A DNA stretch of 32,716 bases, from NCBI GenBank assembly GCA_049521895.1, contig JBEKOJ010000001.1:1-32716 (forward strand), in the 5' to 3' direction. Of the stretch, positions 3,266-28,931 are shown one piece after another (positions within the stretch are counted from its first letter, which is position 1; every line of letters starts with the position of its first letter). The DNA is from Candidatus Saccharimonadales bacterium. Its GTDB lineage: Bacteria; Patescibacteriota; Saccharimonadia; Saccharimonadales; UBA10212. A program made the position numbers and the translations under genes. The notes below the pieces were generated by a model. The model worked only from the letters and a program-made list of their open reading frames with translations, searched no databases and was not told the DNA's origin.

Positions 3266-4030
3266 ATGGTTAAGAAAATAATTGCGGTGCTGAACCAAAA
3301 GGGTGGGGTAGGTAAAACCACCACGGCCATCAACCTGGCGGCTTACCTTGCCAAGGCCGGCCGTAAAGTTTTGCTGGTAGATATTGACCCCCAGGCCAAC
3401 AGCACCAGCGGCCTGGGCCTGGACAAACAGGATTTAAGCTCAACATTGTACGACGTGCTGTTTTCGCGCGCGGAAGCCCATAAGACCATCAAAAAAGTCA
3501 CCAGCCACGGGCTGTATCTGCTACCATCCAATCCCAACCTGGCTGGCGCCGAGGTGGAACTGGTGGAAATACCGTACCGCGAGCTAAAACTCAAAAATGT
3601 CCTGGACAACCTAGAATACGATTATATTTTGATTGATTGCCCGCCTAGCCTGGGACTGCTGACAGTCAACGCCCTAACCGCTGCCGACGAAGTGTTGATT
3701 CCGGTGCAGGCTGAATATTACGCCATGGAGGGTTTGAGCCAGCTGCTGGCAACAGTGCAGCAGGTGCGCCAGACGCTTAACCCCAACTTAAATATCCTCG
3801 GTGTGGTGGTCACGCTGTACGACAGCCGCAATTCGTTGGCCGAACAGGTAAGAGAGGAGCTAGTGCGCCACTTTGGTGATAAAATATTTGATACGGTCAT
3901 TCCGCGCAACGTGCGTCTGGCCGAGGCGCCAAGTTTTGGCAAGACGATAGCTGAACACGATAAGTGGAGCAAGGGCGCGCGGGCATATAAAGCTCTGGCC
4001 CGCGAGCTAGAAAAGAGGGCAAATGGCTAA
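3266..4030 (+). CDS. parA: ParA/Soj chromosome-partitioning ATPase
   Basis: Deviant Walker A motif NQKGGVGKTTT. Full-length ParA-like sequence (VDIDPQANST, IDCPPSLG). Overlaps parB by 8 nt. Confidence 0.95.
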   Translation: MVKKIIAVLNQKGGVGKTTTAINLAAYLAKAGRKVLLVDIDPQANSTSGLGLDKQDLSSTLYDVLFSRAEAHKTIKKVTSHGLYLLPSNPNLAGAEVELVEIPYRELKLKNVLDNLEYDYILIDCPPSLGLLTVNALTAADEVLIPVQAEYYAMEGLSQLLATVQQVRQTLNPNLNILGVVVTLYDSRNSLAEQVREELVRHFGDKIFDTVIPRNVRLAEAPSFGKTIAEHDKWSKGARAYKALARELEKRANG

Positions 4031-4880
4031 AAATACTGGACTGGGCAGGGGGTTTGACGCGCTGTTCCCAAAAGATCTGGATACCACTATCCTTGAGGAA
4101 GACAAACACCGGGTGCAGAAAATTCTTATTCAAGATATTTTTCCCAATTCTGACCAGCCCCGGCGGGAGTTTGACGAGGGGGCACTCGCCGAGCTCACAG
4201 ACTCGGTTAGAAGGCACGGGGTACTTCAGCCGATATTCGTGGTTAGGGCTGGCAAGGGCTATCAAATTGTCGCCGGCGAGCGCCGCTGGCGGGCCGCTAA
4301 AGCCGCCAAGTTAACGCATATGCCGGCGATTGTGCGCAGCCTGAAGGAGCTTGAGCAGATAGAATTCTCATTGATTGAAAATATCCAGAGGGTAGATTTA
4401 TCACCGCTGGAGCAGGCTTTGTCCGTATTTAAATTACAACAGCAATTCAACCTGGGCTTAGAGGAAATTGCCCAAAAAATTGGTAAAGCTCCCAGTACCG
4501 TAAGCAATCTGACTAGATTATTACAGCTACCGGGGCCAGCCCGGGAGGCTCTACGTGGCGGCAAAATCAGTGAAGGCCACGCCAGATCTATCCTGGCACT
4601 TAAGGGCCAGCCCGCTAAACAAGATGAGCTACTTCAATATATTTTAAACAACGGCTGGACCGTACGACAGGCAGAACAATTCGTGGTGGCGGCTAAAAAA
4701 GGCGCTAGTGTCACGCAGGCCAAGAGTCATACAGCTGCCCGGACTGCCCTCACCAAGAATCTAAGTAAACAATTGGGGACAGATGTCAAAATTAAGCACA
4801 CAGCCCATGGTGGACAACTAATTATTGCATTTGACTCAGAAGACCACTTGCAACAAATTGTTAAGAAACTCAAAGCCTAG
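4023..4880 (+). CDS. parB: ParB/Spo0J partition protein
   Basis: Contains the ParB box GERRWRAAK and an HTH region (IAQKIGKAPSTVSNLTRLL). Translationally coupled to parA. Confidence 0.93.
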   Translation: MAKNTGLGRGFDALFPKDLDTTILEEDKHRVQKILIQDIFPNSDQPRREFDEGALAELTDSVRRHGVLQPIFVVRAGKGYQIVAGERRWRAAKAAKLTHMPAIVRSLKELEQIEFSLIENIQRVDLSPLEQALSVFKLQQQFNLGLEEIAQKIGKAPSTVSNLTRLLQLPGPAREALRGGKISEGHARSILALKGQPAKQDELLQYILNNGWTVRQAEQFVVAAKKGASVTQAKSHTAARTALTKNLSKQLGTDVKIKHTAHGGQLIIAFDSEDHLQQIVKKLKA

Positions 4881-5749: not shown

Positions 5750-7459
5750 ATGACCAAACCAAAGAAGTTTAGAAGACCGAAGCACAGCCCGGCCAGCATA
5801 GATGGTGTGATAGTGGGTAGCCGCGGCTTAGGCACACAAACCGTCGGTTCTTATCAGCCTAAACGAGGACAACAGATGCCCTCTATAGGTGATACTATGC
5901 GTCGTAGTGATGGCTTCCATGCTAGTCGCCAATCGCCCGACAGCTTGGGCCACGGGGGAGTCGAGGCGGCTGAAGCCCAGGCATTACTAGATGAGCCAAT
6001 AATGTTAGACGATGATTCGGGCAAGCAGAAAAAACACTATTTCGGGCACAAGCACCCAAGAGTACGCAGGTATTTCAAGCGCGGCAGTTTGTTGATTCTG
6101 GCATTGATAATTGTAGTCGGTGGCTTTTTGGGCTGGAAACTGGAAAAAGACATAAGTAAAGTTTTTCACGGCAACATTTTCAGCTTTCTTCATCCGGCGG
6201 CCAAGCTAAGGGGTGAAGATCAGGGAAGGGTAACAATCCTGCTAGCCGGTAATTCAGCCGATGACCCGGGCCACGAGGGCGAGAATTTAACAGATTCCAT
6301 TATGCTTGTTAGCTTGGATACAGCCAATAACACTGGGTATTTGCTCAGTATTCCGCGGGACTTCTGGGTAAATTATGGTACCAATAACTGCTCATACGGC
6401 AACCAGGGCAGGATTAACGCTATTTATGAGTGTGGCCAGGCCATTAACTTCCATCAAAATGGCTACCCCAGCGGCGGCATGGGGTTGCTGGTAAAAGATG
6501 TTGACCAATACCTTGGCGTTAACATTGGCTACTACGCGCTAATTGATTATTCCGGCTTGCGTGATGCCGTTAATGCCGTTGGCGGCATTGAATTTACAGT
6601 AAATAACCCTAACACATGTTATATTCTGGGCCGGCCCTTTAATGGCCTTTACGATGGCGGCAGGGATTATGTTACTGGAGGGGTACTTGTTAATTTAACC
6701 AACGGCACCCATCTTTTAAACGGCGAACAAGCGCTGGATCTGGCCCGCGCCCGCGGCGACTTTCCATACCTATACCCCAGCTGCGGCTACGAAAATAACG
6801 ATTTTACCCGGACGCAAAACCAGCGGCAAGAACTTCTTTCTTTGAAAAGTAAAATCTTAAGCCTGGGCGTACTGAGCAACCCCGCTAAACTCAGTAGCTT
6901 GCTGGACACTTTCGGTAACAGCGTCCAGACTAACTTCCGAGCCAACGAAATCTTGCGGCTGTACAATCTAAGTAAAAAAATCCCCAACTCGCAGATTCAG
7001 TCCGTTGCCTTGACCGTCACCGGCAACGGGACCAACTACTTAAAGAGCATGAACATTAATGGGGCCGATGTGTTTATACCGGCGGCCGGAGAAGGGAACT
7101 ATTCTGACATCCAATCTTTTATCCAACGGCTTAACAGTAACAATCCTGTCGTTAAAGAAGACGCCAGCGTAGTGATTCTAAATGCCAGCAATATAAACGG
7201 GCTAGCCGCCAAGACCGCGACCACTTTGACCAATGCCGGCATGAACGTGGTGGCTACCGGTGACGATACCGTCCGGTCCACATCAGCAGTAGTAGTCCTA
7301 AATTCACAAAAATCTGCCACTAAGTCCTATCTGCAGAAGACCTTCAAGGTTACCCCTACAACTAACACCGCGGCATTTCCTGAGACTCAAAACTACAACG
7401 CCGATTTTGTTATAATCCTTGGTGAAGATGCCGCGACTTCCAATACCCCGTCACAGTGA
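5750..7459 (+). CDS. LytR-CpsA-Psr (LCP) family cell-envelope phosphotransferase with a LytR_C domain
   Basis: ILLAGNSADD...TDSIMLVSL...SIPRD is the LCP core. A single TM follows a basic N-terminal tail. The start is set at ATG 5750 (MTKPKKF) because the track start at 5642 overlaps the divergent lepB start. Confidence 0.85.
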   Translation: MTKPKKFRRPKHSPASIDGVIVGSRGLGTQTVGSYQPKRGQQMPSIGDTMRRSDGFHASRQSPDSLGHGGVEAAEAQALLDEPIMLDDDSGKQKKHYFGHKHPRVRRYFKRGSLLILALIIVVGGFLGWKLEKDISKVFHGNIFSFLHPAAKLRGEDQGRVTILLAGNSADDPGHEGENLTDSIMLVSLDTANNTGYLLSIPRDFWVNYGTNNCSYGNQGRINAIYECGQAINFHQNGYPSGGMGLLVKDVDQYLGVNIGYYALIDYSGLRDAVNAVGGIEFTVNNPNTCYILGRPFNGLYDGGRDYVTGGVLVNLTNGTHLLNGEQALDLARARGDFPYLYPSCGYENNDFTRTQNQRQELLSLKSKILSLGVLSNPAKLSSLLDTFGNSVQTNFRANEILRLYNLSKKIPNSQIQSVALTVTGNGTNYLKSMNINGADVFIPAAGEGNYSDIQSFIQRLNSNNPVVKEDASVVILNASNINGLAAKTATTLTNAGMNVVATGDDTVRSTSAVVVLNSQKSATKSYLQKTFKVTPTTNTAAFPETQNYNADFVIILGEDAATSNTPSQ

Positions 7460-8222
7460 CCCCGCCAAGATTGGTCCGGGCAAACTAGCCAGACTTAAGC
7501 CGGTGCGTGGTTTTGCGCACTCGGTGCACATCGGCCTCAATGTGCTGCTGCCTATAGCAGCTTATATATTGGTACGCATTGATTTCGTGGGCTTGGCGAT
7601 ACTGCTGATCCTGCTCAGTAAATGGCAGATGTTTGCCGTACGCCCGCGCTATTGGTTTGCCAACCTGGTGGCGAACGGCATTGATATCTTGGTGGCAGTC
7701 TCACTGGTGCTGTTCATGGCTAATACCATGTCTACCTGGTGGCAGCTGCTGTGGATGGTGCTATATATCGGTTGGTTGGTGTGGCTCAAGCCAAGGAGTG
7801 ACGTACTGAGCGTTTCGGGGCAGGCGATGGCAGGCCAATTGCTGGCTTTGGCTGTGCTGTATCTTAAATTCGGCGATTCCTCGCTGCCGGTTCTGGTAGT
7901 AGCTACCTGGGGGGTAGCTTACCTGTCGGCACGCCATTTCTTGACTAGTTTCGAAGAATCGCACACCGCGCTGCTGGCTCACGTCTGGGCCTATTTTGCG
8001 GCCGCGTTAGCTTTTGTGTTAGGACACTGGCTGCTATTTTACGGTTCGGTGGCGCAAATCATCGTTATCTTAACTACTATCGGTTATGGCATGGCGGCGC
8101 TATATTATCTTGACGCCACGGAGCGTTTAAGCCGGCTGATGGAACGCCAGTTGTTACTAATCATGATTGCAATTCTGCTGGTAGTATTCTTTTTATCCGA
8201 TTGGAGCGGCGTCACCGTTTAG
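7419..8222 (+). CDS. Polytopic membrane protein of unknown function
   Basis: Has about 7-8 hydrophobic helices. The start is ambiguous: TTG 7419, GTG 7422 or ATG 7428. A TATAAT box lies at 7411-7416, inside the 3' end of the LCP gene. Confidence 0.7.
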   Translation: MVKMPRLPIPRHSDPAKIGPGKLARLKPVRGFAHSVHIGLNVLLPIAAYILVRIDFVGLAILLILLSKWQMFAVRPRYWFANLVANGIDILVAVSLVLFMANTMSTWWQLLWMVLYIGWLVWLKPRSDVLSVSGQAMAGQLLALAVLYLKFGDSSLPVLVVATWGVAYLSARHFLTSFEESHTALLAHVWAYFAAALAFVLGHWLLFYGSVAQIIVILTTIGYGMAALYYLDATERLSRLMERQLLLIMIAILLVVFFLSDWSGVTV

Positions 8223-8389
8223 GCCGCCACGCCACGCCAGCCTGCCGTCCCCGCCTTGGCAGGGCCGCACCGCTGGCGTTCTTGGCAAATCGCTGTGTTG
8301 CATCCTCTGTTGCTCGTTCAATGTATTCGTACATACATCTCACTCCGCTACTCAGCTGCGCCTAGCGCTTTGCTCAAGCGTGGCGGCCT
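8221..8389 (+). ncRNA. Unclassified structured element, copy A (homolog of 28328-28494)
   Basis: Closing stem 8221-8232/8378-8389. Nested stems 8235-8241/8272-8278 and 8281-8293/8365-8377. Invariant blocks TGTTGCATCCT (8296) and CTGCGCCTAGCGC (8356). The stems covary with copy B. Confidence 0.6.
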
Positions 8390-8443
8390 ATACCAATCTC
8401 GGCGTGCTTCCTAACAAATTGCGATTTTTCAGCTTACATTCAG

Positions 8444-8449
8444 TATAAT
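8444..8449 (+). promoter_or_regulatory. -10 box (AGTATAATT context) for htrA
   Basis: TATAAT lies 20 nt upstream of ATG 8470. The SD-like AGGGTGG is at 8461-8467. Confidence 0.5.
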
Positions 8450-8469
8450 TGATATATAAAAGGGTGGAA

Positions 8470-9738
8470 ATGGAAGATATCGATGATAAAATCGAGCGCA
8501 TCAACAAAGAGCCGGCAGTAGCTAGATATTCCACGCGGCCGAGTCATCTGCCTAAAACGCCCAACTTCAATTGGCTCCGACGGCCGGTTATTAGTCGCCG
8601 ACGCTTGATATTAACTATCTTGGCACTAGTGATATTTTTAGCCGTGATGGTTGGCGGAGGCTGGATCGGGGCTTACCTTTATGAAAACCATCACAGTATT
8701 GCTAGTACCACTTCAGCGAAACAGCAGTACATCTCCGATGAAAGTGAACTGATTGCCGCTATCGCCAAAAATGTCGGCCAAAGCGTAGTTTCGGTAGATG
8801 CCCAAAGTCAGGTCACTTCTCAGGACATCTTTGGCTTTAACCAAACGCAAAACCAGGAAAGCGCCGGCACCGGTTTTATAATTGACAGTAACGGTACTAT
8901 TGTTACCAACCGCCACGTCGTGCCGGCTGGTACCAGCAGCGTAAGTGTTACCCTGGCTGATGGCACAACTTATAACAACGTCCAAGTTATCGGCCGGACC
9001 GCTGATACCGACCCGTTGGATGTTGCGTTCCTGAAAATCCCAAACCTAAACGGCAAAAAACTCACGCCGGTAACACTTGGTGATTCGTCCCAAATGCAGG
9101 TTGGCGATAGGGTAGTGGCCATTGGTAACGCCCTCGGTCAATTTCAGAATACCGTCACATCTGGCATTATCTCCGGTTACGGCCGCGATGTAACAGCCGG
9201 CGACCAAACAGGCATTGCTTCCGAGAACCTGACTGATTTATTCCAGACCGACGCCGCCATTAACGAAGGTAACTCCGGTGGCCCGCTCGTCAACATCAAC
9301 GGCGAAGTCATCGGCTTAAATACTGCCGTGGCTTCCGGTGCCCAAAACATCGGTTTTGCCATCCCCATTAATGACATCAAAGGCCTGATCAACAGTGTTC
9401 TAAGCAAAGGGCAACTGCAGCAACCGTATCTGGGCGTACGCTATGTGTCGCTTACTAACGACTTGGCCAGCCAGTTTAATCTGAGCATAACCCGTGGAGC
9501 CTACATCGTCTCCGGCGATAACGAACCGGCTGTCATTGCCGGCAGCCCGGCTGACATAGCCGGCCTAAAAGATGGTGACGTTATCACCAAAGTTAACAAT
9601 ATAACTATTGACGATAAAACTAGCCTGACTGGTGCGCTAGCGCAATTTCAAGTAGGCGATAAAGTGAATCTCACGGTTGTTAGAGCTGGCAAAACCATTC
9701 AGCTTACAGCTACACTTGGCAACACCCCCACCGGCTAG
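8470..9738 (+). CDS. htrA: HtrA/DegP-family serine protease with a C-terminal PDZ domain, membrane-anchored
   Basis: Catalytic triad contexts are TNRHVV, LDVAFLK and GNSGGPLVN. A PDZ-like tail and one N-terminal TM are present. ATG 8470 is preferred over TTG 8449. Confidence 0.92.
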   Translation: MEDIDDKIERINKEPAVARYSTRPSHLPKTPNFNWLRRPVISRRRLILTILALVIFLAVMVGGGWIGAYLYENHHSIASTTSAKQQYISDESELIAAIAKNVGQSVVSVDAQSQVTSQDIFGFNQTQNQESAGTGFIIDSNGTIVTNRHVVPAGTSSVSVTLADGTTYNNVQVIGRTADTDPLDVAFLKIPNLNGKKLTPVTLGDSSQMQVGDRVVAIGNALGQFQNTVTSGIISGYGRDVTAGDQTGIASENLTDLFQTDAAINEGNSGGPLVNINGEVIGLNTAVASGAQNIGFAIPINDIKGLINSVLSKGQLQQPYLGVRYVSLTNDLASQFNLSITRGAYIVSGDNEPAVIAGSPADIAGLKDGDVITKVNNITIDDKTSLTGALAQFQVGDKVNLTVVRAGKTIQLTATLGNTPTG

Positions 9739-9747
9739 GCGCGCTCC

Positions 9748-9929
9748 CCCTTGTTTCTCCCGGACGCTGCCTCACCGCGAGTAGCTGTTGTCTAAAACAG
9801 GCTCGCTAAAGAACTCCTCGCGAATATGCTCCCAGCATATCCACTTCGTCGAACATGCTTTAGCGCCTAAGGATGCCTCTTTGTAAACAACATCTAATCA
9901 AAGCTTGGCGGATGTCCGGAGAACAAGGG
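9748..9929 (+). ncRNA. Large bracketed hairpin domain in the htrA 3' region (C1)
   Basis: CCCTTGTTTCTCCCGGAC (9748-9765) pairs with GTCCGGAGAACAAGGG (9914-9929). Internal hairpins include ATATGCT-CCC-AGCATAT (9824-9840). Whether it acts as RNA or DNA is unknown. Confidence 0.4.
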
Positions 9930-9950
9930 TTCGCTCGATAAACTGATACA

Positions 9951-10059
9951 GGGCCGCGAGCACCATACCTAAAAAGTGGGTCAGGCGTAGTGCAACCCGA
10001 GCAACGGTTTAGGTTGCCCGGCGTGAAACGCACACTTTTTAGGTATGGTGCGGGAGGCC
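9951..10059. repeat. Hairpin with a 19-bp perfect inverted repeat around a 54-nt structured loop (C2)
   Basis: GCACCATACCTAAAAAGTG (9960-9978) is the reverse complement of CACTTTTTAGGTATGGTGC (10033-10051). The inner stem is GCAACC/GGTTGC. Confidence 0.6.
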
Positions 10060-10067
10060 AATGAACG

Positions 10068-10089
10068 AATACTTAACTCGTTAAGTATT
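10068..10089. repeat. Palindrome AATACTTAAC-TC-GTTAAGTATT (family copy 1), abutting the prmC stop codon
   Basis: Perfect 10+10 inverted repeat. The same motif occurs at 14894-14917 and 27087-27110. Confidence 0.7.
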
Positions 10090-10091
10090 TA

Positions 10092-10898
10092 TTAAATTGG
10101 TTCGAAAACTTGGATGAAATCTTCGCGGCAATGTTCGTAAAAGCCAGCGCTGGCAGCAATATCTACCAGCTGGGCGTGCTGGGGTGGCATAGATTCGGTC
10201 AACACAAACTGCGGCTTAGAGTGACGTGCAGCTAGTTGCATAAATAGCCGTCGGTAAACTTCCAAGCCGTCGCCACCGCCAAAAATCGCGATCCTGGGCT
10301 CGCAGCTGGCGGCCTTGTTGATATGGTAATAGCTGGGTACATAGGGCAGGTTAGCTAGTATTACGTCGTGAGAGCTAGGGCTAGCGGATAACAGATCGCT
10401 GCAAAACCAGCGCAGTGCGAGTTTGTGACGCCTAACATTTTCCACTGCCACCGCCAAAGCCCTTTGATCGATCTCGAACAAGTCGACAATAGATCGTGGA
10501 ATTTCCAGTGCCGCCGTTATACCAAGTGCGCCGCAACCGGCACCGACATCAGCGATTCGCGGATGGATGGGCAGACTCAAACTCTTAAGCAGGCTAATCA
10601 TAATTTCGGACTCGGGGCGTGGCTGCAAAACCCGTCCGTCAATCTTAAAGCGGCGGCCATAAAACTCGCAAAAACCGCGGATATAACCCAGTGGCTCGTG
10701 TTTTTCACGACGCCGCAACCACTTTTCCAGCTTTTCCAAGGCTGGTCCTTGGAAAGTATATTCCGGGTGAGCCAGAAACCACGTCCGGTCTTTTTTTAGG
10801 CAGTCTTCTAGCATGATAAGTATGTCCAAGCGCGCCGAGCCAATACCAGCTTTTTGTAGCCGGGAAGTGCCGTAAGTTAAGAAAGTCGCGCTGTTCAT
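10092..10898 (-). CDS. prmC: Release-factor glutamine N5-methyltransferase (PrmC/HemK)
   Basis: Has a SAM-binding motif (ADVGAGCGALG) and the NLPY variant of the NPPY motif (ILANLPYVP). Sits downstream of prfA. Its ATGA overlaps the upstream gene. Confidence 0.88.
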   Translation of the reverse strand: MNSATFLTYGTSRLQKAGIGSARLDILIMLEDCLKKDRTWFLAHPEYTFQGPALEKLEKWLRRREKHEPLGYIRGFCEFYGRRFKIDGRVLQPRPESEIMISLLKSLSLPIHPRIADVGAGCGALGITAALEIPRSIVDLFEIDQRALAVAVENVRRHKLALRWFCSDLLSASPSSHDVILANLPYVPSYYHINKAASCEPRIAIFGGGDGLEVYRRLFMQLAARHSKPQFVLTESMPPQHAQLVDIAASAGFYEHCREDFIQVFEPI

Positions 10899-11512: not shown

Positions 11513-12574
11513 TCATACGTTTCCTTTGATGAGTTCCAGCTCGCGCTCGTGGAGTCTCTCTATAACATCGTCGATATCGCCGGCCAGCGCGCCAGGCAGG
11601 TTGGAGCGTGAATAGTTGATGCGGTGGTCGGTAATGCGATCCTGCGGGAAGTTATAGGTGCGGATTTTTTCAGAGCGGTCGCCGCTGCCGATCAGCTTAC
11701 GCCGGGCGTCGTCGAGCTGCTTTTGTTCTTCTTCTATCTTCATCTGCAACAAGCGCGCTCTAAGTACGCTCAGAGCCTTTTCGCGATTTTTGATTTGGCT
11801 TTTTTCATCCTGCTGGGTAACAACCAAGCCGGTGGGTAAATGGGTTATACGCACCGCCGAATCGGTGGTATTAACAGATTGGCCACCCGGACCGCTGCTG
11901 CGGAAAACGTCAATTTTTAAATCTGCCGGCTCGATATCTACATCGGTCTCCTCGGCTTCCGGCAGCACCGCCACAGTAACCGTGCTGGTGTGTATACGGC
12001 CTTGGCTTTCGGTAGTAGGTACGCGCTGCACACGGTGCACGCCGGCCTCAAATTTTAGCAGGCCGTAGGCATTCTCACCGTGTACCATAAAAATAATTTC
12101 CTTAAAACCGCCAGAGCCCCCGCCCGGGCTTTCGCTCATAAGCTCTGTTTTATAACTACGGCGCTCGCACCATCGGCTATACATGCGGAATAAGTCGCCG
12201 GCAAACAGGCTGGCTTCGTCACCGCCGGCGGCAGCGCGGATCTCCACCACGGCGTCGCGCTCGTCGTTGGGATCTTTAGGAAGTAGCGCTTCGTTTAAAT
12301 CCTGCTGAGTTTGGTCCAACTTAGTAGATATCTCATTTACTTCTGTCTTGGCCAGTTCGGCTAACTCCTCATCGGATCCATCCGCCATAGTTTTAGCCTC
12401 AGCCAGCTGAGCCTTCAGGACTTTTTTGTTGTCAAATAAGTCTAAAATTTTGGCCAGCTCACCCTGGCGCTTAGCCATGGTGGGGTAATCGCTACGGCCA
12501 AATACATCAGGGTGTTCCAGCTCCTGCTGCAACCGCGTGAACTCTTCGCGTAATTTTTGCTCCTGAGAATCCAT
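11513..12574 (-). CDS. prfA: Peptide chain release factor 1
   Basis: Contains the GGQ motif ([12 protein letters not shown]) and the RF1-type PxT motif (RVQRVPTTE). ATG 12574 is preferred over TTG 12589. Confidence 0.95.
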
Positions 12575-12590
12575 AAAGATATTTACCAAC

Positions 12591-12690
12591 TAACATTTAA
12601 CATTTTACATTTATTTATCAGGTAACAGTTAACAAATTGCAGTCACGATGATAAATGACCAGATGTTAAATAAATGCTAAATAGAAAATG
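12591..12690. repeat. Opposed AT-rich word arrays (nACATTT heptads x3 versus an AAATG-containing arm) forming an imperfect hairpin between rpmE and prfA
   Basis: Heptads lie at 12592-12612. The 10-bp perfect core is CATTTATTTA (12608-12617) paired with TAAATAAATG (12667-12676). Confidence 0.55.
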
Positions 12691-14893: not shown

Positions 14894-14921
14894 AAATACT
14901 TAACTTGTTAAGTATTTTTTT
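14894..14921 (+). terminator. Palindrome AAATACTTAAC-TT-GTTAAGTATTT followed by a T-run (family copy 2); putative tsf terminator
   Basis: The inverted repeat spans 14894-14917 and is followed by TTTT. The stem is AU-rich, so it may instead be a protein-binding site. Confidence 0.5.
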
Positions 14922-20591: not shown

Positions 20592-20610
20592 TTCATTGAT
20601 GATTTAGATT

Positions 20611-20739
20611 TCTCATTTAACATTTAACAGTTTTCATTTAGGTTTGCACTTACCATTTTCCGCTGCAGAGCAGGATATCCGGTAAACACCACCTGATAAA
20701 TAAATGTGAAATGTGAACCGGTAAATGTAAAATGTAATT
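20611..20739. repeat. Opposed heptad arrays around a central palindromic segment. One arm is CAnTTnn x4. The other arm is AAATGTn x4
   Basis: 20614-20641 reads CATTTAA CATTTAA CAGTTTT CATTTAG. 20702-20736 reads AAATGTG AAATGTG AACCGGT AAATGTA AAATGTA. Confidence 0.65.
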
Positions 20740-22269
20740 ATGCAGTGGCTTAACGAAGTCGTTGATGAAATAGTAGGCCGATTTCCTGAAGGTGATATCT
20801 TAATTGAATCTGGTGGGTCACCATCGGGCGTGCACCACCTAGGACATTTACGCGAACTTATTACATCAGACGCATTGATGTTGGAGCTACAGCAGCGCGG
20901 GCGGCAAACGCGCCACATCTACTATGCGGATGATCTTGACGGACTTAGAAAAATCCCTGTTAACGTGCCCGCAAATTTTGAGAAATATCTCGGCCGGCCC
21001 CTGTGCGATATACCTTCGCCTGACGGCTCCTCTAGCTCCTATGCCGATCATTTCTTGCAAGGGCTAATTGATACCGCCAAAGCGCTGGGTATGGAAATTG
21101 AATTTATTCATAGTAGCAAAAAATACCGCGCCGGATTTTTTACCGAAGCGATTGAAAAAGCCCTGGATAATATTGAGCCGATCCATCAGGCGCTAGAAAA
21201 TATATCCGGCCACAAACTGGGCGACGAGTGGTCGCCCATCCAGATTAACGAAGGCGGCTATCTAAAAAAGCGCCGGTTTGTAAGCATTGATAAAGCCAGC
21301 AAAACCGTTGCCTACGAGGACTTAAGCGGACAGCAACAGTCCATAAGCTATAGCAGCGGCGACGTTAAGCTCGATTGGCGAATTGACTGGCCAGCCCGCT
21401 GGTGGCTACTGAAAGTGAATGTTGAGCCCTTTGGCCGCGACCATGCCACCAAAGGCGGCAGCTACGATACCGGCGCCGCTATTATCAAAGATGTTTATGG
21501 TGCCGATCCACCCTTGGCGGTACCATACGATTTTGTAAATTTAGCTGGCGATAGCAAAAAAATGAGCGCCAGCAAGGGAACTGGCTTGGACGCCGAGGGT
21601 GTCGTGAAGGTCCTGCCGCCGGAAATCGTGCGTTTCTTCATGTTACGCTACCCGCCTTCAAAAAGACTATACTTCGACCCCGAAAACGGCGTTTCGCAGC
21701 TGATCGATGATTTCGCTGCGCTCTTAGCCAAGAAAGATAAAACCAAAGACGAGCAGCAACTGGTTGATATATGCAATCACGGCATCAACCCAACCGTTAG
21801 CACGATACCTTTCTCCCACCTAACGGCGAGCTATCAAGCTAGCCTAAAAGACCCTGTTAAGACGATAGATTTTCTGCGCCGCACAGAACCTGATGGAATC
21901 TCCGGACCCGAGCAAGAAATTATCAAAGATCAGCTGATTTTTATTGACCAGTGGCTTGAGAAGTGGGCGCCGGATGACGTTAAGTTTGAGCTGGCCGAAA
22001 AAGTTGATGCTGATAAGTTCAACGATGCTGAAAAATCGCTTCTAAGTAGTCTAGCCGATAAAATCGCTAGCGCGCCGGCTGATGCTGACGGCGAATGGTT
22101 CCACAAAGCAATTTACGACCTCAAAGAAAGCGGCGGCTTAACCCCCGAGCAGGTATTTGAACCTCTTTATAGAGCACTGATCGGCAAGGACAGCGGCCCG
22201 CGCGCCGGCTGGTTTTTGTCCATCCTGCCCCGCGACTGGCTTGCCAAACGTCTGAAGCTCGAAGCTTGA
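20740..22269 (+). CDS. lysK: Class I lysyl-tRNA synthetase
   Basis: HIGH-like motif SGVHHLGHLRE and KMSKS-like motif KMSASKG. Length and architecture match class I LysRS. The -10 TAAAAT (20728-20733) lies 6 nt upstream of the ATG. Confidence 0.88.
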   Translation: MQWLNEVVDEIVGRFPEGDILIESGGSPSGVHHLGHLRELITSDALMLELQQRGRQTRHIYYADDLDGLRKIPVNVPANFEKYLGRPLCDIPSPDGSSSSYADHFLQGLIDTAKALGMEIEFIHSSKKYRAGFFTEAIEKALDNIEPIHQALENISGHKLGDEWSPIQINEGGYLKKRRFVSIDKASKTVAYEDLSGQQQSISYSSGDVKLDWRIDWPARWWLLKVNVEPFGRDHATKGGSYDTGAAIIKDVYGADPPLAVPYDFVNLAGDSKKMSASKGTGLDAEGVVKVLPPEIVRFFMLRYPPSKRLYFDPENGVSQLIDDFAALLAKKDKTKDEQQLVDICNHGINPTVSTIPFSHLTASYQASLKDPVKTIDFLRRTEPDGISGPEQEIIKDQLIFIDQWLEKWAPDDVKFELAEKVDADKFNDAEKSLLSSLADKIASAPADADGEWFHKAIYDLKESGGLTPEQVFEPLYRALIGKDSGPRAGWFLSILPRDWLAKRLKLEA

Positions 22270-23471: not shown

Positions 23472-24041
23472 ATGCTTCGTAAGATTTTAGCGTCTGATTC
23501 ACTGGTAGCCGCCCCGGCTTTGCTGGGCTGGAACCTATGCCGGCAGACGCCTCAAGGTGTTATTAAACTTAAGATTGTCGAAACCGAGGCCTACCATCAA
23601 GATGAGCCGGCCAGCCATAGTTTTCGGGGATTAACTCAACGGACGGCGCCAATGTTTAAAGCCGGTGGCCACTTATATGTTTATTTTACCTATGGCGTGC
23701 ATTACTGCCTTAATATTGTCGTTGGTGACAAAGGGGTAGGGGAGGCGGTTTTGCTGCGGGCCGGCGAGCCCATTTCCGGTGTAGAAATTATGCGGCAGAA
23801 CCGCAAGCTAACAGATATAAAAAACTTGGCCAATGGCCCCGGTAAATTGACGCAGGCTTTAGGAATTAAAGACACATCGCTCTCTGGAAAATTACTTAAC
23901 AGGTCAAGTATTTGGCTGGAAGCCCCCGAAAAATTAATTGACATTAAAGATGTAATCGCCAGCCCGCGGGTTGGTATTAAACAAGCCACCGAATTACCTT
24001 GGCGCTTTTGCATTACAGACAATCCGTTCGTATCACGCTAA
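23472..24041 (+). CDS. mpg: DNA-3-methyladenine glycosylase (Mpg/AAG family)
   Basis: Contains ETEAY...D.ASH...G.T.R...MF..GG..YVY..YG.H.C.N.V, the family signature. Confidence 0.88.
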   Translation: MLRKILASDSLVAAPALLGWNLCRQTPQGVIKLKIVETEAYHQDEPASHSFRGLTQRTAPMFKAGGHLYVYFTYGVHYCLNIVVGDKGVGEAVLLRAGEPISGVEIMRQNRKLTDIKNLANGPGKLTQALGIKDTSLSGKLLNRSSIWLEAPEKLIDIKDVIASPRVGIKQATELPWRFCITDNPFVSR

Positions 24042-27086: not shown

Positions 27087-27110
27087 AATTACTTAACCTG
27101 TTAAGTAATT
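27087..27110. repeat. Palindrome AATTACTTAAC-CT-GTTAAGTAATT (family copy 3) between convergent genes
   Basis: Perfect 11+11 inverted repeat ending one base before the stop codon of the minus-strand gene (27111). Confidence 0.7.
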
Positions 27111-28037
27111 TTATAAGAAAGCCTGGACGGTAGCGCTAGTAATCGATGCAAAAATCTGGTGGCCTTCGGCATCATCATAATCGCCGTCATTATCCATCTT
27201 GGTAAAAATCACCAGCACGTAAGGGTGTTTGCCGTTGTCGATGATAGCGGCGTCGTGTACCCGGTCGTCTAAAAAACCGATTTTATGGTATACCTTGACG
27301 CCTTTGGGCACCGAGGCCACGATGTAGTTATCGTAGTTGGCATCGTGCATATAGTTCATCAACAGCTGGGTGTCGGCAGAGTTTAGTAGCTCGCCTTTGT
27401 AGAGTTTAGCTAAAAGCAGCGATATGTCATCAACTGTCAAGGTGTTTTGGCTAGGATCGTAATTGATAAGCCCGATTTCTTGGGCATAATTCGACAGGGC
27501 GTCGTTGGTCAACAAGTTGTTTAGATTGATCCAAGCGGTGTCATCGCTGATTTCAATAAGTTGCTGCAGCTCATATTGTGCGCTGGAGCCATCAATGTCT
27601 TCGTTGAGGGTTTGCTGTCCAAGCTCCACTTCGTGTAAAAAGAGGCTGGCGGTCAACACCTTGGAGATACTGGCAGCTATAAAAGCCTGGCCGATGCCAT
27701 AGTGGTAGGATTTATGATTATTTAGGTCCACTATAGCTACGCCCACTTCCATATCCTGGTAACTACTGATCACATCGTTAATCTGGCTGGACATTAGCGA
27801 CGTTTGGGCAGCGGTTAGAGTTGGCTTGCTGACGGCCTCAACCTTGCTGAATTTTGCCTTACCCAAGTTAAACGGCAGGTTGGACAGCCGCGTGTAGTGG
27901 TAGCCAAGCATTATAAGCAGTACCAACAAGGGGAATCCCAGCAGCCACTTGATAGATATTTTGCCGGATTTCTTGCTTGAATCCTTGGGCGGTAGCCTGC
28001 TAGAGCGATAATAATTATTGAGGCCGTGACTTTGCAT
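27111..28037 (-). CDS. Class A beta-lactamase-like serine hydrolase, membrane-anchored
   Basis: Has an S-x-x-K motif (ASISK), an SDN-like motif (ISDD) and a KTG-like motif (HKIG). One N-terminal TM. Confidence 0.75.
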   Translation of the reverse strand: MQSHGLNNYYRSSRLPPKDSSKKSGKISIKWLLGFPLLVLLIMLGYHYTRLSNLPFNLGKAKFSKVEAVSKPTLTAAQTSLMSSQINDVISSYQDMEVGVAIVDLNNHKSYHYGIGQAFIAASISKVLTASLFLHEVELGQQTLNEDIDGSSAQYELQQLIEISDDTAWINLNNLLTNDALSNYAQEIGLINYDPSQNTLTVDDISLLLAKLYKGELLNSADTQLLMNYMHDANYDNYIVASVPKGVKVYHKIGFLDDRVHDAAIIDNGKHPYVLVIFTKMDNDGDYDDAEGHQIFASITSATVQAFL

Positions 28038-28179
28038 ATTTGTTTTACGCTATAGACTTTAGCTTAAGTCAAGCTTAAAGCAGTAACTTCTAGTCTAGCA
28101 CGTAGATTGAAAATTTTACTACGCTTACAAGCTAGCCCTAAAGAGTTAATTAACATAAGCAAAATGTAGTAAAAAATAC

Positions 28180-28208
28180 TTGACAATATGGCCGCAGAAG
28201 CATATATT
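28180..28208 (+). promoter_or_regulatory. Near-consensus sigma70-type promoter TTGACA-N17-TATATT with no ORF behind it
   Basis: -35 at 28180-28185 and -10 at 28203-28208. Confidence 0.65.
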
Positions 28209-28214
28209 AAGACT

Positions 28215-28327
28215 TAGTCATCGTGAGGTGACCACGATAATCTCAGCAATGGAATTATCGTACGGTAATAAACCCTCGGGCGAGTTATCGTCCAAAAAAG
28301 AGACCCTCGTGGCCTCTTTTTTGTTTT
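28215..28327 (+). ncRNA. Candidate ~110-nt sRNA or attenuator leader ending in an A-tract/hairpin/T-tract
   Basis: Hairpins are ATCGTG/CACGAT, CGATAAT/ATTATCG and ATTATC-GTAC-GGTAAT. TTATCGT and ACCCTCG are each duplicated, allowing alternative pairings. The terminator-like hairpin pairs 28294-28305 with 28311-28322 and runs into a T-tract. Confidence 0.5.
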
Positions 28328-28494
28328 CTGAGCTTTCCGCCGCGCTGGCCTGCCTTCTGGCAGAGCCAGAAGCTCCGCCAGCACTCTTGTCGCAGCGCGT
28401 TGTTGCATCCTGCGGTCCGCGCTCACCGTATTACATATACGGCTAGCTTGCGTTCCTCGTCTGCGCCTAGCGCTGCACAAGCGGAAAAACTCAG
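28328..28494 (+). ncRNA. Unclassified structured element, copy B (homolog of 8221-8389)
   Basis: Closing stem 28328-28340/28481-28494. Nested stems 28344-49/28377-82 and 28386-98/28470-81. TGTTGCATCCT lies at 28401 and CTGCGCCTAGCGC at 28461. Confidence 0.6.
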
Positions 28495-28541
28495 AAGTTT
28501 GCGCGAGATGACACTTTTTATTAAGTATAATTAGGTGGATC

Positions 28542-28931
28542 ATGGTAGAAATCAACGATAAAGAGTTTGAGGAAATTATTAGCCAGGGAATAGCGGCCAT
28601 CCCAAACTTGTATCAAAAACATCTGCAGAATGTGGCTTTCTTGGTAGAGGACGATCCCACACCTCAGCAGCGCGTGAAACTCAATCTCTACCCACACGAG
28701 ACGTTATTCGGCTTATACGAAGGTGTGCCATTGCCACAGAGGGGCGGCGGCACCAAACTGTTGCCAGATAAAATAACTATCTTTAAAAACCCACTGCAAA
28801 ATGCTAGCCGTAATCTAGCTGAGTTAAAAGAAAACGTCCGCCACACAATCTGGCACGAGGTTGCCCATTACTATGGTTTGGATCATAAAAGGATCCACGA
28901 ATTGGAAGGTACTGACAGATCCTCGGGATGA
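28542..28931 (+). CDS. Zincin-like metallopeptidase-family protein (HExxH); C-terminus altered by a 135-bp duplication or insertion
   Basis: WHEVAHYYGL is the HExxH motif in a small ~130-aa protein, resembling the Zincin_1/DUF1025-type family (from memory). The -10 TATAAT is at 28526-28531. Confidence 0.75.
   Translation: MVEINDKEFEEIISQGIAAIPNLYQKHLQNVAFLVEDDPTPQQRVKLNLYPHETLFGLYEGVPLPQRGGGTKLLPDKITIFKNPLQNASRNLAELKENVRHTIWHEVAHYYGLDHKRIHELEGTDRSSG
28877..28906 (+). repeat. 30-bp perfect direct repeat, copy 1 (inside the 3' end of the metallopeptidase gene)
   Basis: TTTGGATCATAAAAGGATCCACGAATTGGA is identical to 29012-29041. Confidence 0.9.

Follow-up and report, generated by a model that had tools for sequence, protein, structure and literature searches.

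A previously undescribed family of G+C-rich, Y-folding intergenic elements in Candidatus Saccharimonadales is probably an interspersed repeat and not a dedicated protease regulator

Do two similar structured elements that precede protease genes in the same genome form one control module, or are they copies of a repeat that came to rest beside these genes? The question arose from a 32,716-nt stretch of a Candidatus Saccharimonadales genome (contig JBEKOJ010000001.1, assembly GCA_049521895.1; hereafter the window), in which one element (copy A) lies upstream of htrA and another (copy B) upstream of a zincin gene. The original prediction had proposed a shared stress-type cis module, while granting that the pairing might reflect only where spacers tolerate insertion. 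Our analysis favours the latter. It is most likely that A and B do not jointly serve to control proteases under stress, and we put at roughly 0.6 the probability that the Y element, as we call it after its fold, is a family of interspersed and modular repeats of the REP/BIME/BOX/MITE kind, constrained in structure, rather than a dedicated protease regulator.

The covariance model places copy B within a few bases of the interval originally given for it (28328-28494; Table 1), and the two elements are a genuine pair: they are homologous end to end with several indels, have the same fold, and are the only two in the window, since an exhaustive covariance-model scan of it returned no third. Their identity is 76% in pairwise and 66% in three-way alignment, and the exact blocks TGTTGCATCCT and CTGCGCCTAGCGC occur in both at an identical spacing of 60 nt; a gap-free repeat finder missed the pair because of the indels. 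Both copies are G+C-rich (~61-62%, vs. 49% for the window). Over the shared blocks, the open frames of A and B are out of register with each other, and the indel lengths are not divisible by three; the element is therefore noncoding, and a coding region or pseudogene was ruled out, as no reading frame is conserved between the copies. Public gene calls include an 86-aa ORF over half of copy B and the small RNA unit upstream of it (L024:9645-9905, also in L025-L027; window 28180-28446), which is almost certainly a spurious gene. A tRNA or tmRNA was ruled out (ARAGORN finds neither), and Rfam 15 gave no match at the gathering score in the window or in L005, a Chloroflexota locus considered below; matches around copy B at E <= 10 were at chance level only.

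Table 1. Coordinates of the Y elements, their modules, and neighboring features in the window
Feature	Position	Strand	Details
Copy B of Y element	28325..28497	+ (= family-alignment orientation)	covariance model 173.5 bits at 28326-28498
Copy B, P1 5' arm	28325..28340	+	UUUCUGAG.UUUCCGC; partner 28481-28497 in MFE structure
Copy B, hairpin P2	28342..28384	+	most conserved module among same-genome copies
Copy B, long hairpin P3	28387..28480	+	cores GTTGCATCCT (28402-28411) and CTGCGCCTAGCGCT (28461-28474)
Copy B, P1 3' arm	28481..28497	+	GCGGAAA..CUCAGAAG; MFE structure
Copy A of Y element	8220..8390	+	covariance model 153.9 bits at 8217-8395
Copy A, P1	8220-8232 with 8378-8390	+	perfect 13-bp stem, including the TAG stop of the upstream gene
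Copy A, P2	8234-8279	+	MFE structure
Copy A, P3	8282-8377	+	MFE structure
Gene upstream of copy A	7419..8222	+	267 aa, no Pfam family; TAG stop = first three bases of P1
-10-like box of htrA, AGTATAATT	8442..8450	+	native to locus, outside element
htrA, downstream of copy A	8470..9738	+	Pfam Trypsin_2 + PDZ
Small RNA unit upstream of copy B	28180..28322	+	promoter TTGACA-17-TATATT (28180-28208); terminator A6-stem-U6 (28296-28322)
AGTATAATT before zincin gene	28524..28532	+	native to locus, outside element; doubtful promoter
Zincin gene, downstream of copy B	28542..28931	+	Pfam Zincin_1 (PF06262)

A and B share a Y-shaped fold, in which a closing stem (P1) encloses a hairpin of ~43 nt (P2) and a long hairpin of ~95 nt (P3); P3 has several internal loops and carries the shared sequence blocks on its two strands. 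On the + strand, the minimum free energy is about -77.4 to -77.7 kcal/mol for A (z = -5.6 against dinucleotide shuffles) and about -80.0 to -80.4 kcal/mol for B (z = -5.3). The P1 sequences of A, B, and the element at the zincin locus of L028 are unrelated, each pairing within its own copy, and 10 of the 13 P1 pairs show double-sided changes. Covariation was assessed on five distinct sequences (A, B, L028, L038, and L005); double-sided changes were found in 40 of 62 pairs of this alignment, which was fitted to the covariance model and so favours the structure. Standard pairs made up 91% of the pair cells, compared with 27-44% in controls slid by 1-3 columns, and none of 500 shuffles reached any observed covariation measure. 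RNAalifold, applied independently to three sequences, returned covarying pairs at 32 of 62. Clearly, either constraint or active restoration maintains pairing in the Y element. Within the genome, P2 is conserved best, whereas P3 is the module common across lineages. The L028 element is 54% identical to B, no better than the neighboring non-functional spacer (60%), and still folds (z = -5.7), so double-sided changes preserve pairing, and the primary sequence has drifted at about the rate of the spacer just upstream.

Could such covariation arise without selection on an RNA? Among the consensus-helix cells, 221 of 255 (87%) are Watson-Crick, and the G-U (11) and A-C (8) cells are nearly balanced, so that neither strand is clearly favoured; this balance fits DNA-level hairpins or transcription in either sense. 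A DNA-level quasi-palindrome with no selected function, or a structure-specific DNA site for a recombinase or nucleoid protein, would account for the near-absence of non-Watson-Crick pairs and of strand asymmetry, for the folding of both strands, and for the exact 31-mers common to copies, which suggest recent conversion or duplication; replication template switching between arms, or gene conversion, would then mimic compensatory evolution. We regard this account as unlikely. The element retains internal loops and bulges of conserved sequence (GUU/CUA, UCC), which have not been "corrected" to perfect pairs, the three-way junction with separate P2 and P3 is no simple palindrome, and the decay of an orthologous copy mainly in one arm (L042, below) indicates that such correction does not happen by itself.

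In each copy tested, folding is more stable on the minus strand: -92.0 vs. -77.4 kcal/mol in A, -91.4 vs. -80.0 in B, -82.0 vs. -64.1 in L028, and -58.1 vs. -42.4 in L005, a gain of ~11-18 kcal/mol that shrinks to ~2 kcal/mol in the L038 copy. The corresponding z-scores are -7.2 (A), -6.9 (B), and -7.6 (L028, the third copy shuffled), against -5.6, -5.3, and -5.7 on the + strand. Together with the strong covariation, which is typical of RNA genes, and a minus-strand promoter-like TTTCCA-17-TATACT facing copy A, this could point to independently transcribed small RNA genes, possibly on the minus strand; a minus-strand RNA of B would start near TATACT (reverse complement of AGTATAATT) and end at the bidirectional A6-stem-U6 terminator. 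Such genes are unlikely, however, because the minus strand of copy A lacks a terminator and leads into a coding region, no minus-strand promoter was called for B or L028, and the L038 copy fills a 132-nt spacer with no room for signals of its own. The G-U and A-C counts show no strand preference, the better minus-strand folding could reflect a higher G content, and the patchy distribution and one decayed copy speak against an essential RNA. Promoter-like and terminator-like signals around the copies are ambiguous and inconsistent from copy to copy. A search for RNA-seq or metatranscriptome runs containing the locus returned none. The Y element was also rejected as an intrinsic terminator, as no T-run lies 3' of A, B, L028, or L038 and the terminator scan called none.

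If the elements regulated the genes downstream of them, they should not be dispensable where these genes and their signals are kept. At the htrA locus, copy A is absent from two relatives (HtrA 82% and 77% identical) that retain the htrA promoter stretch TTTTTCAGCTT..TTCAG(C/T)ATAAT, including CAGCATAAT. The htrA spacer is 48 nt long in L032, which belongs to the same genome as L028 and lacks copy A, and 174 nt long and AT-rich in L035 (HtrA 82% identical), where it contains TTTTTCAGCTTGTATTCAGCATAAT, the orthologue of TTTTTCAGCTTACATTCAGTATAAT in the window, and no element. This makes copy A an insertion specific to its lineage, and the -10-like box downstream of it was there beforehand.

Copy B is nearly the same in strains whose zincin is 95% identical, and at the zincin locus a Y element is also present in L028-L031 (GCA_964586795.1; zincin 81% identical), where it has the same Y shape with all three stems differing in sequence and neither core block conserved. 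It is absent from L037 (GCA_035623495.1; zincin 78% identical), which keeps the upstream promoter, the small RNA, the terminator, and TATAAT, the T-run leading directly into TATAAT and the start codon; the hairpin and T-run predicted upstream of B are thus real and conserved in relatives. L038-L041 and L042/L043 have neither small RNA nor element at this locus. With the element missing at htrA in L032 and L035, at zincin in L037-L043, and without an Rfam match, a riboswitch or other conserved cis leader was ruled against. The B-locus fold has been kept in two lineages ~46% diverged in sequence. As a neutral, decaying insertion would lose its fold, this persistence hints at some function, unless it reflects independent insertions or refreshment by gene conversion. 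The window spacer 28038-28541, 504 nt of noncoding sequence including copy B, differs from L024:9497-10000 by one base; next to zincin proteins of 95% identity, this suggests a recombination boundary near the repeat. In the relatives lacking the small RNA, one or two minus-strand ORFs of 52-58 aa lie upstream of zincin (L038:9692-9868, L039:9484-9852, and L041/L042:9691-9868), with a match to the KGG stress-protein family in L042.

Pfam confirms that both downstream genes encode proteases, HtrA and a zincin (Table 1). The same -10 context predicted after both copies held in so far as AGTATAATT is present at both and occurs just twice in the window, against an expectation of ~0.26 (two occurrences were reached in 3 of 100 shuffles). 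It did not hold as a part of the element: the boxes are native to their loci and are kept in relatives that lack the element, and are therefore older than it. The sole -35 candidate of the htrA box is TTGCGA, 19 nt upstream, and the consensus scan calls no + strand promoter there. At zincin, no -35 is called, and the box abuts the Shine-Dalgarno sequence AGGTGGA (28533-28539); the window, L028, and the element-free L037 all have TATAAT 9-10 nt ahead of the start codon. This proximity to the start codon and to the Shine-Dalgarno sequence makes it doubtful as an mRNA promoter. The only strong promoter that the scan found in the A and B regions is that of the small RNA upstream of B. The shared -10 context of A and B is thus coincidental and lies outside the repeat.

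A, B, and L028 served to build a covariance model, which was run over ~460 kb of fetched loci. It recovered a P3-only copy at L038:2497-2628 (62 bits, z = -3.5), which fills the 132-nt spacer from the stop codon (TGA) of a Peptidase_M50 gene to an Rce1-like gene, a junction at which the genes overlap in the window, in L028/L030, and in L041. The L042/L043 orthologue of this copy has lost the fold (18.5 bits, z = -0.65), the changes in L042 lying mainly in one arm and being uncompensated. All three Saccharimonadales loci are thus filled in some lineages and empty in others. L005, which derives from a Chloroflexota genome (Limnocylindrales-like, 71% G+C), also yielded a P3-like hairpin (47 bits); it separates rho from an M23/LysM peptidase gene and is antisense to both. 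Transfer from an actinobacterial host was dropped as an explanation, L005 being Chloroflexota. Downstream of rho (L005:5800-5940), tandem copies of a sequence close to CGACGAACGCAGTCGGG adjoin the P3-like hairpin.

Peat and wetland metagenomes often contain the organism, and peat contigs of the same depth as the window carry more copies: C, with P2 and P3, on a 24.5-kb contig; D, at the end of a 19.5-kb contig; and E, on a 33.9-kb contig; a 15.6-kb contig matches over P2 only. The P2 31-mer at 28348-28378 forms a separate unitig at two to three times the depth and breaks assemblies, several same-depth contigs ending or matching there. From these contigs and the depth of the 31-mer, we infer that the genome (~0.78 Mb) holds at least five to six copies. 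Empty-site contigs were looked for in metagenomes and not found.

Scanning for the shared cores as an exact pattern (GTTGCATCC-N-GCGCCTAGCGC) gave 11 matches in metagenome contigs, of which L005 alone is real, 10 in GTDB genomes, all by chance, and none in viral contigs, where the P2 pattern likewise had no match. The covariance model scored <=10 bits at the pattern sites of the other 20 loci selected in this way. The pattern is too strict for a census, since even the L028 orthologue does not share the cores. A six-frame protein query with the spurious ORF, which would catch miscalled copies, gave no matches.

The known copies sit inside runs of codirectional genes (Saccharimonadales), A beginning at a TAG stop, the L038 copy at a TGA stop, and B after the terminator T-run. 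A second regulatory reading does without the -10 box: an mRNA cis-acting module, a folded + strand leader or intercistronic RNA bound by a protein or cleaved by an RNase, might tune the downstream peptidase gene and so coregulate envelope and proteolysis genes. The flanking genes give it some colour. All four independent loci adjoin peptidase genes (htrA, zincin, M50/Rce1-like in L038, and rho-M23/LysM in L005), although this adjacency comes cheap in a small sample anchored on zincin and htrA, where ~5 of 33 genes are peptidases. The copy is sense to the downstream gene at the three Saccharimonadales loci with known flanks, and the structure is maintained across lineages at the zincin locus. 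Yet the element is missing in close relatives that keep the genes and the promoter-like sequences, the copy at the Rce1 locus has lost its fold in L042/L043, that of L005 runs antisense to the genes on either side, and the distance from copy to start codon varies from 8 to 82 nt. We therefore think a cis module of this sort improbable. The same absences, at loci of relatives that keep genes and boxes, and the lost fold of the third copy's orthologue speak against the stress-type module originally proposed, whereas the alternative offered with it, insertion where spacers tolerate it, agrees with a family that is multicopy, modular, and patchy, and with the two other repeat families that follow htrA.

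Comparison with known systems places the Y element among interspersed repeats without assigning it to any described family. REP/BIME sequences of Enterobacteria are likewise interspersed, noncoding, hairpin-forming, mosaic or modular, and co-oriented with operons, and they lie in transcribed spacers, often right after stops, where they are thought to act as passive protectors of mRNA 3' ends. The Y element shows the same placement (starts after stops or a T-run) and mosaicism (P3-only copies and a P2-only match), and its at least five to six copies at equal depth, with presence/absence polymorphism at syntenic sites, are those of an interspersed repeat. REPs, however, are 20-40 nt long, share a conserved head of four nucleotides, and number in the hundreds, in association with RAYT transposases, whereas the Y element has hairpins of 40-100 nt inside a closing stem, ~6 copies, and no common head motif; no RAYT, integrase, or TnpA gene was found in the 32.7-kb window (the genome is ~770 kb). 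BOX elements of Streptococcus pneumoniae and ERIC/IRU of Enterobacteria resemble it in being 100-200 bp long, structured, patchy between strains, and cotranscribed with neighbors, and boxA/B/C of BOX parallel the modules P1/P2/P3. They differ in having no sequence similarity to it and in that BOX/ERIC copies are alike within a genome, while Y elements diverge strongly in sequence with pairing kept and have unrelated closing stems.

MITEs such as Correia/NEMIS of Neisseria are also small, nonautonomous, free of ORFs, and polymorphic for insertion, fold as RNA when transcribed, and can adjoin promoters. They have family-wide terminal inverted repeats and target-site duplications, whereas the terminal stems of the Y elements (TAGGCCGCCACGC, TTCTGAGCTTTCCGC, and GTTGAACTGCA) differ; common terminal inverted repeats are absent in A, B, and L028, and no clear target-site duplication was seen on comparing the window with L032/L035 or the window and L028 with L037, element boundaries being uncertain by a few bases. 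In attC sites, the end hairpins of IS200/IS605, and ORF-less PATE derivatives, structure is conserved and sequence free, as in the Y element, terminal inverted repeats and target duplications are likewise missing, and orientation is fixed relative to replication or transcription. Unlike these, the Y element has no ordered attC core sites (RYYYAAC ... GTTRRRY) and no conserved left-flank target tetranucleotide. An integron attC was rejected on inspection of the ends: RYYYAAC and GTTRRRY are lacking in A and B and occur in reverse order in L028. Finally, the CIRCE/HrcA operator and the RNA thermometers ROSE and FourU are also inverted repeats or hairpins, and within a genome they precede several genes for stress or quality control, but they are short, conserved at orthologues across species, and precisely placed relative to the promoter or Shine-Dalgarno sequence, whereas the Y element is long, missing at orthologues of close relatives, and variably spaced.

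Full-text literature searches and Rfam returned nothing relevant on repeats, MITEs, or structured RNA motifs of Saccharibacteria or Patescibacteria. As the Y element fails the tests for a MITE, REP, attC site, terminator, or known RNA family, it is a new family: previously undescribed, 130-180 bp long, G+C-rich, and located in intergenic spacers of some Candidatus Saccharimonadales genomes.

How would such a repeat spread and persist? The differing terminal stems and the lack of a clear target duplication suggest recognition of a folded single strand, and new copies would be made by duplication or by copying and insertion, with folded single-stranded nucleic acid and not fixed termini as the feature recognised; no mobilising enzyme was found in the window. 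Once inserted, the element would be read through within the neighboring transcription unit, and it is probably transcribed passively with its neighbors. At most, it would act as a passive RNA structure, for example shielding the upstream cistron from 3' exonucleases or giving the downstream one a bulky 5' leader. A bolder proposal, which we hold with little confidence, makes the Y element a functional family of structured RNA or ssDNA selected for its shape and spread in Patescibacteria by an undescribed structure-recognising mechanism, with P3 (cores shared with Chloroflexota) targeting or regulating spacers beside envelope peptidase genes (htrA, zincin, M50/Rce1, and M23).

Read as an interspersed repeat, the Y element has consequences beyond this locus. 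Saccharibacteria genomes are tiny and streamlined, and one that houses still-duplicating folded repeats and at least two other modules is less static than assumed. The Y repeats explain recurrent assembly breaks in peat metagenomes, and annotators should be warned that such repeats can be misread as regulatory RNAs or spurious ORFs. Three points stand out. The compensatory evolution is unusually clean, so that structure-dependent mobility could well be studied on this element; P3 has a Chloroflexota relative; and the small RNA conserved in front of zincin may be a genuine undescribed regulator.

That small RNA unit has a promoter matching the consensus at 11 of 12 positions and a predicted RNA of ~105 nt with four hairpins. 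It is kept upstream of zincin in L028 and L037 (76% identity, seven covarying pairs), is absent in the more distant relatives (L038-L043), and has no Rfam match over 28180-28322. Judged by its sequence, the unit might encode a small RNA not yet described, or else serve the zincin-YggT operon as an attenuator or riboswitch-like leader.

The genome is populated by several folded intergenic repeat families, and htrA is flanked by them on both sides. The htrA-prmC spacer (9739-10091, 353 nt) is strongly structured (z = -6.3) and holds two repeat modules, one at 9781-9872 (~9-10x depth) and a 108-nt hairpin at 9952-10059 (~3x). Kinship of these modules with the Y element was ruled out, as there is no sequence relation. 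Relatives have a NUDIX gene or a spacer of 26-81 nt at this position. An AT-rich palindrome, AATACTTAAC-NN-GTTAAGTATT, occurs four times in the window (10068-10093, 14895-14920, 23891-23916, and 27088-27113), three of these in spacers at gene ends, two of which separate convergent genes. A variant lies 3' of the 9952-10059 module at another genomic site. The palindrome probably serves as a terminator in both directions or as a binding site for a protein. ParA and ParB are encoded at 3266-4880, and the window therefore adjoins the origin region. Two spacers 8 kb apart (12572-12690 and 20608-20742) contain AT-rich ACATTTAACATTTTACATTTA-type repeats, both direct and inverted, which look like operator or promoter motifs.
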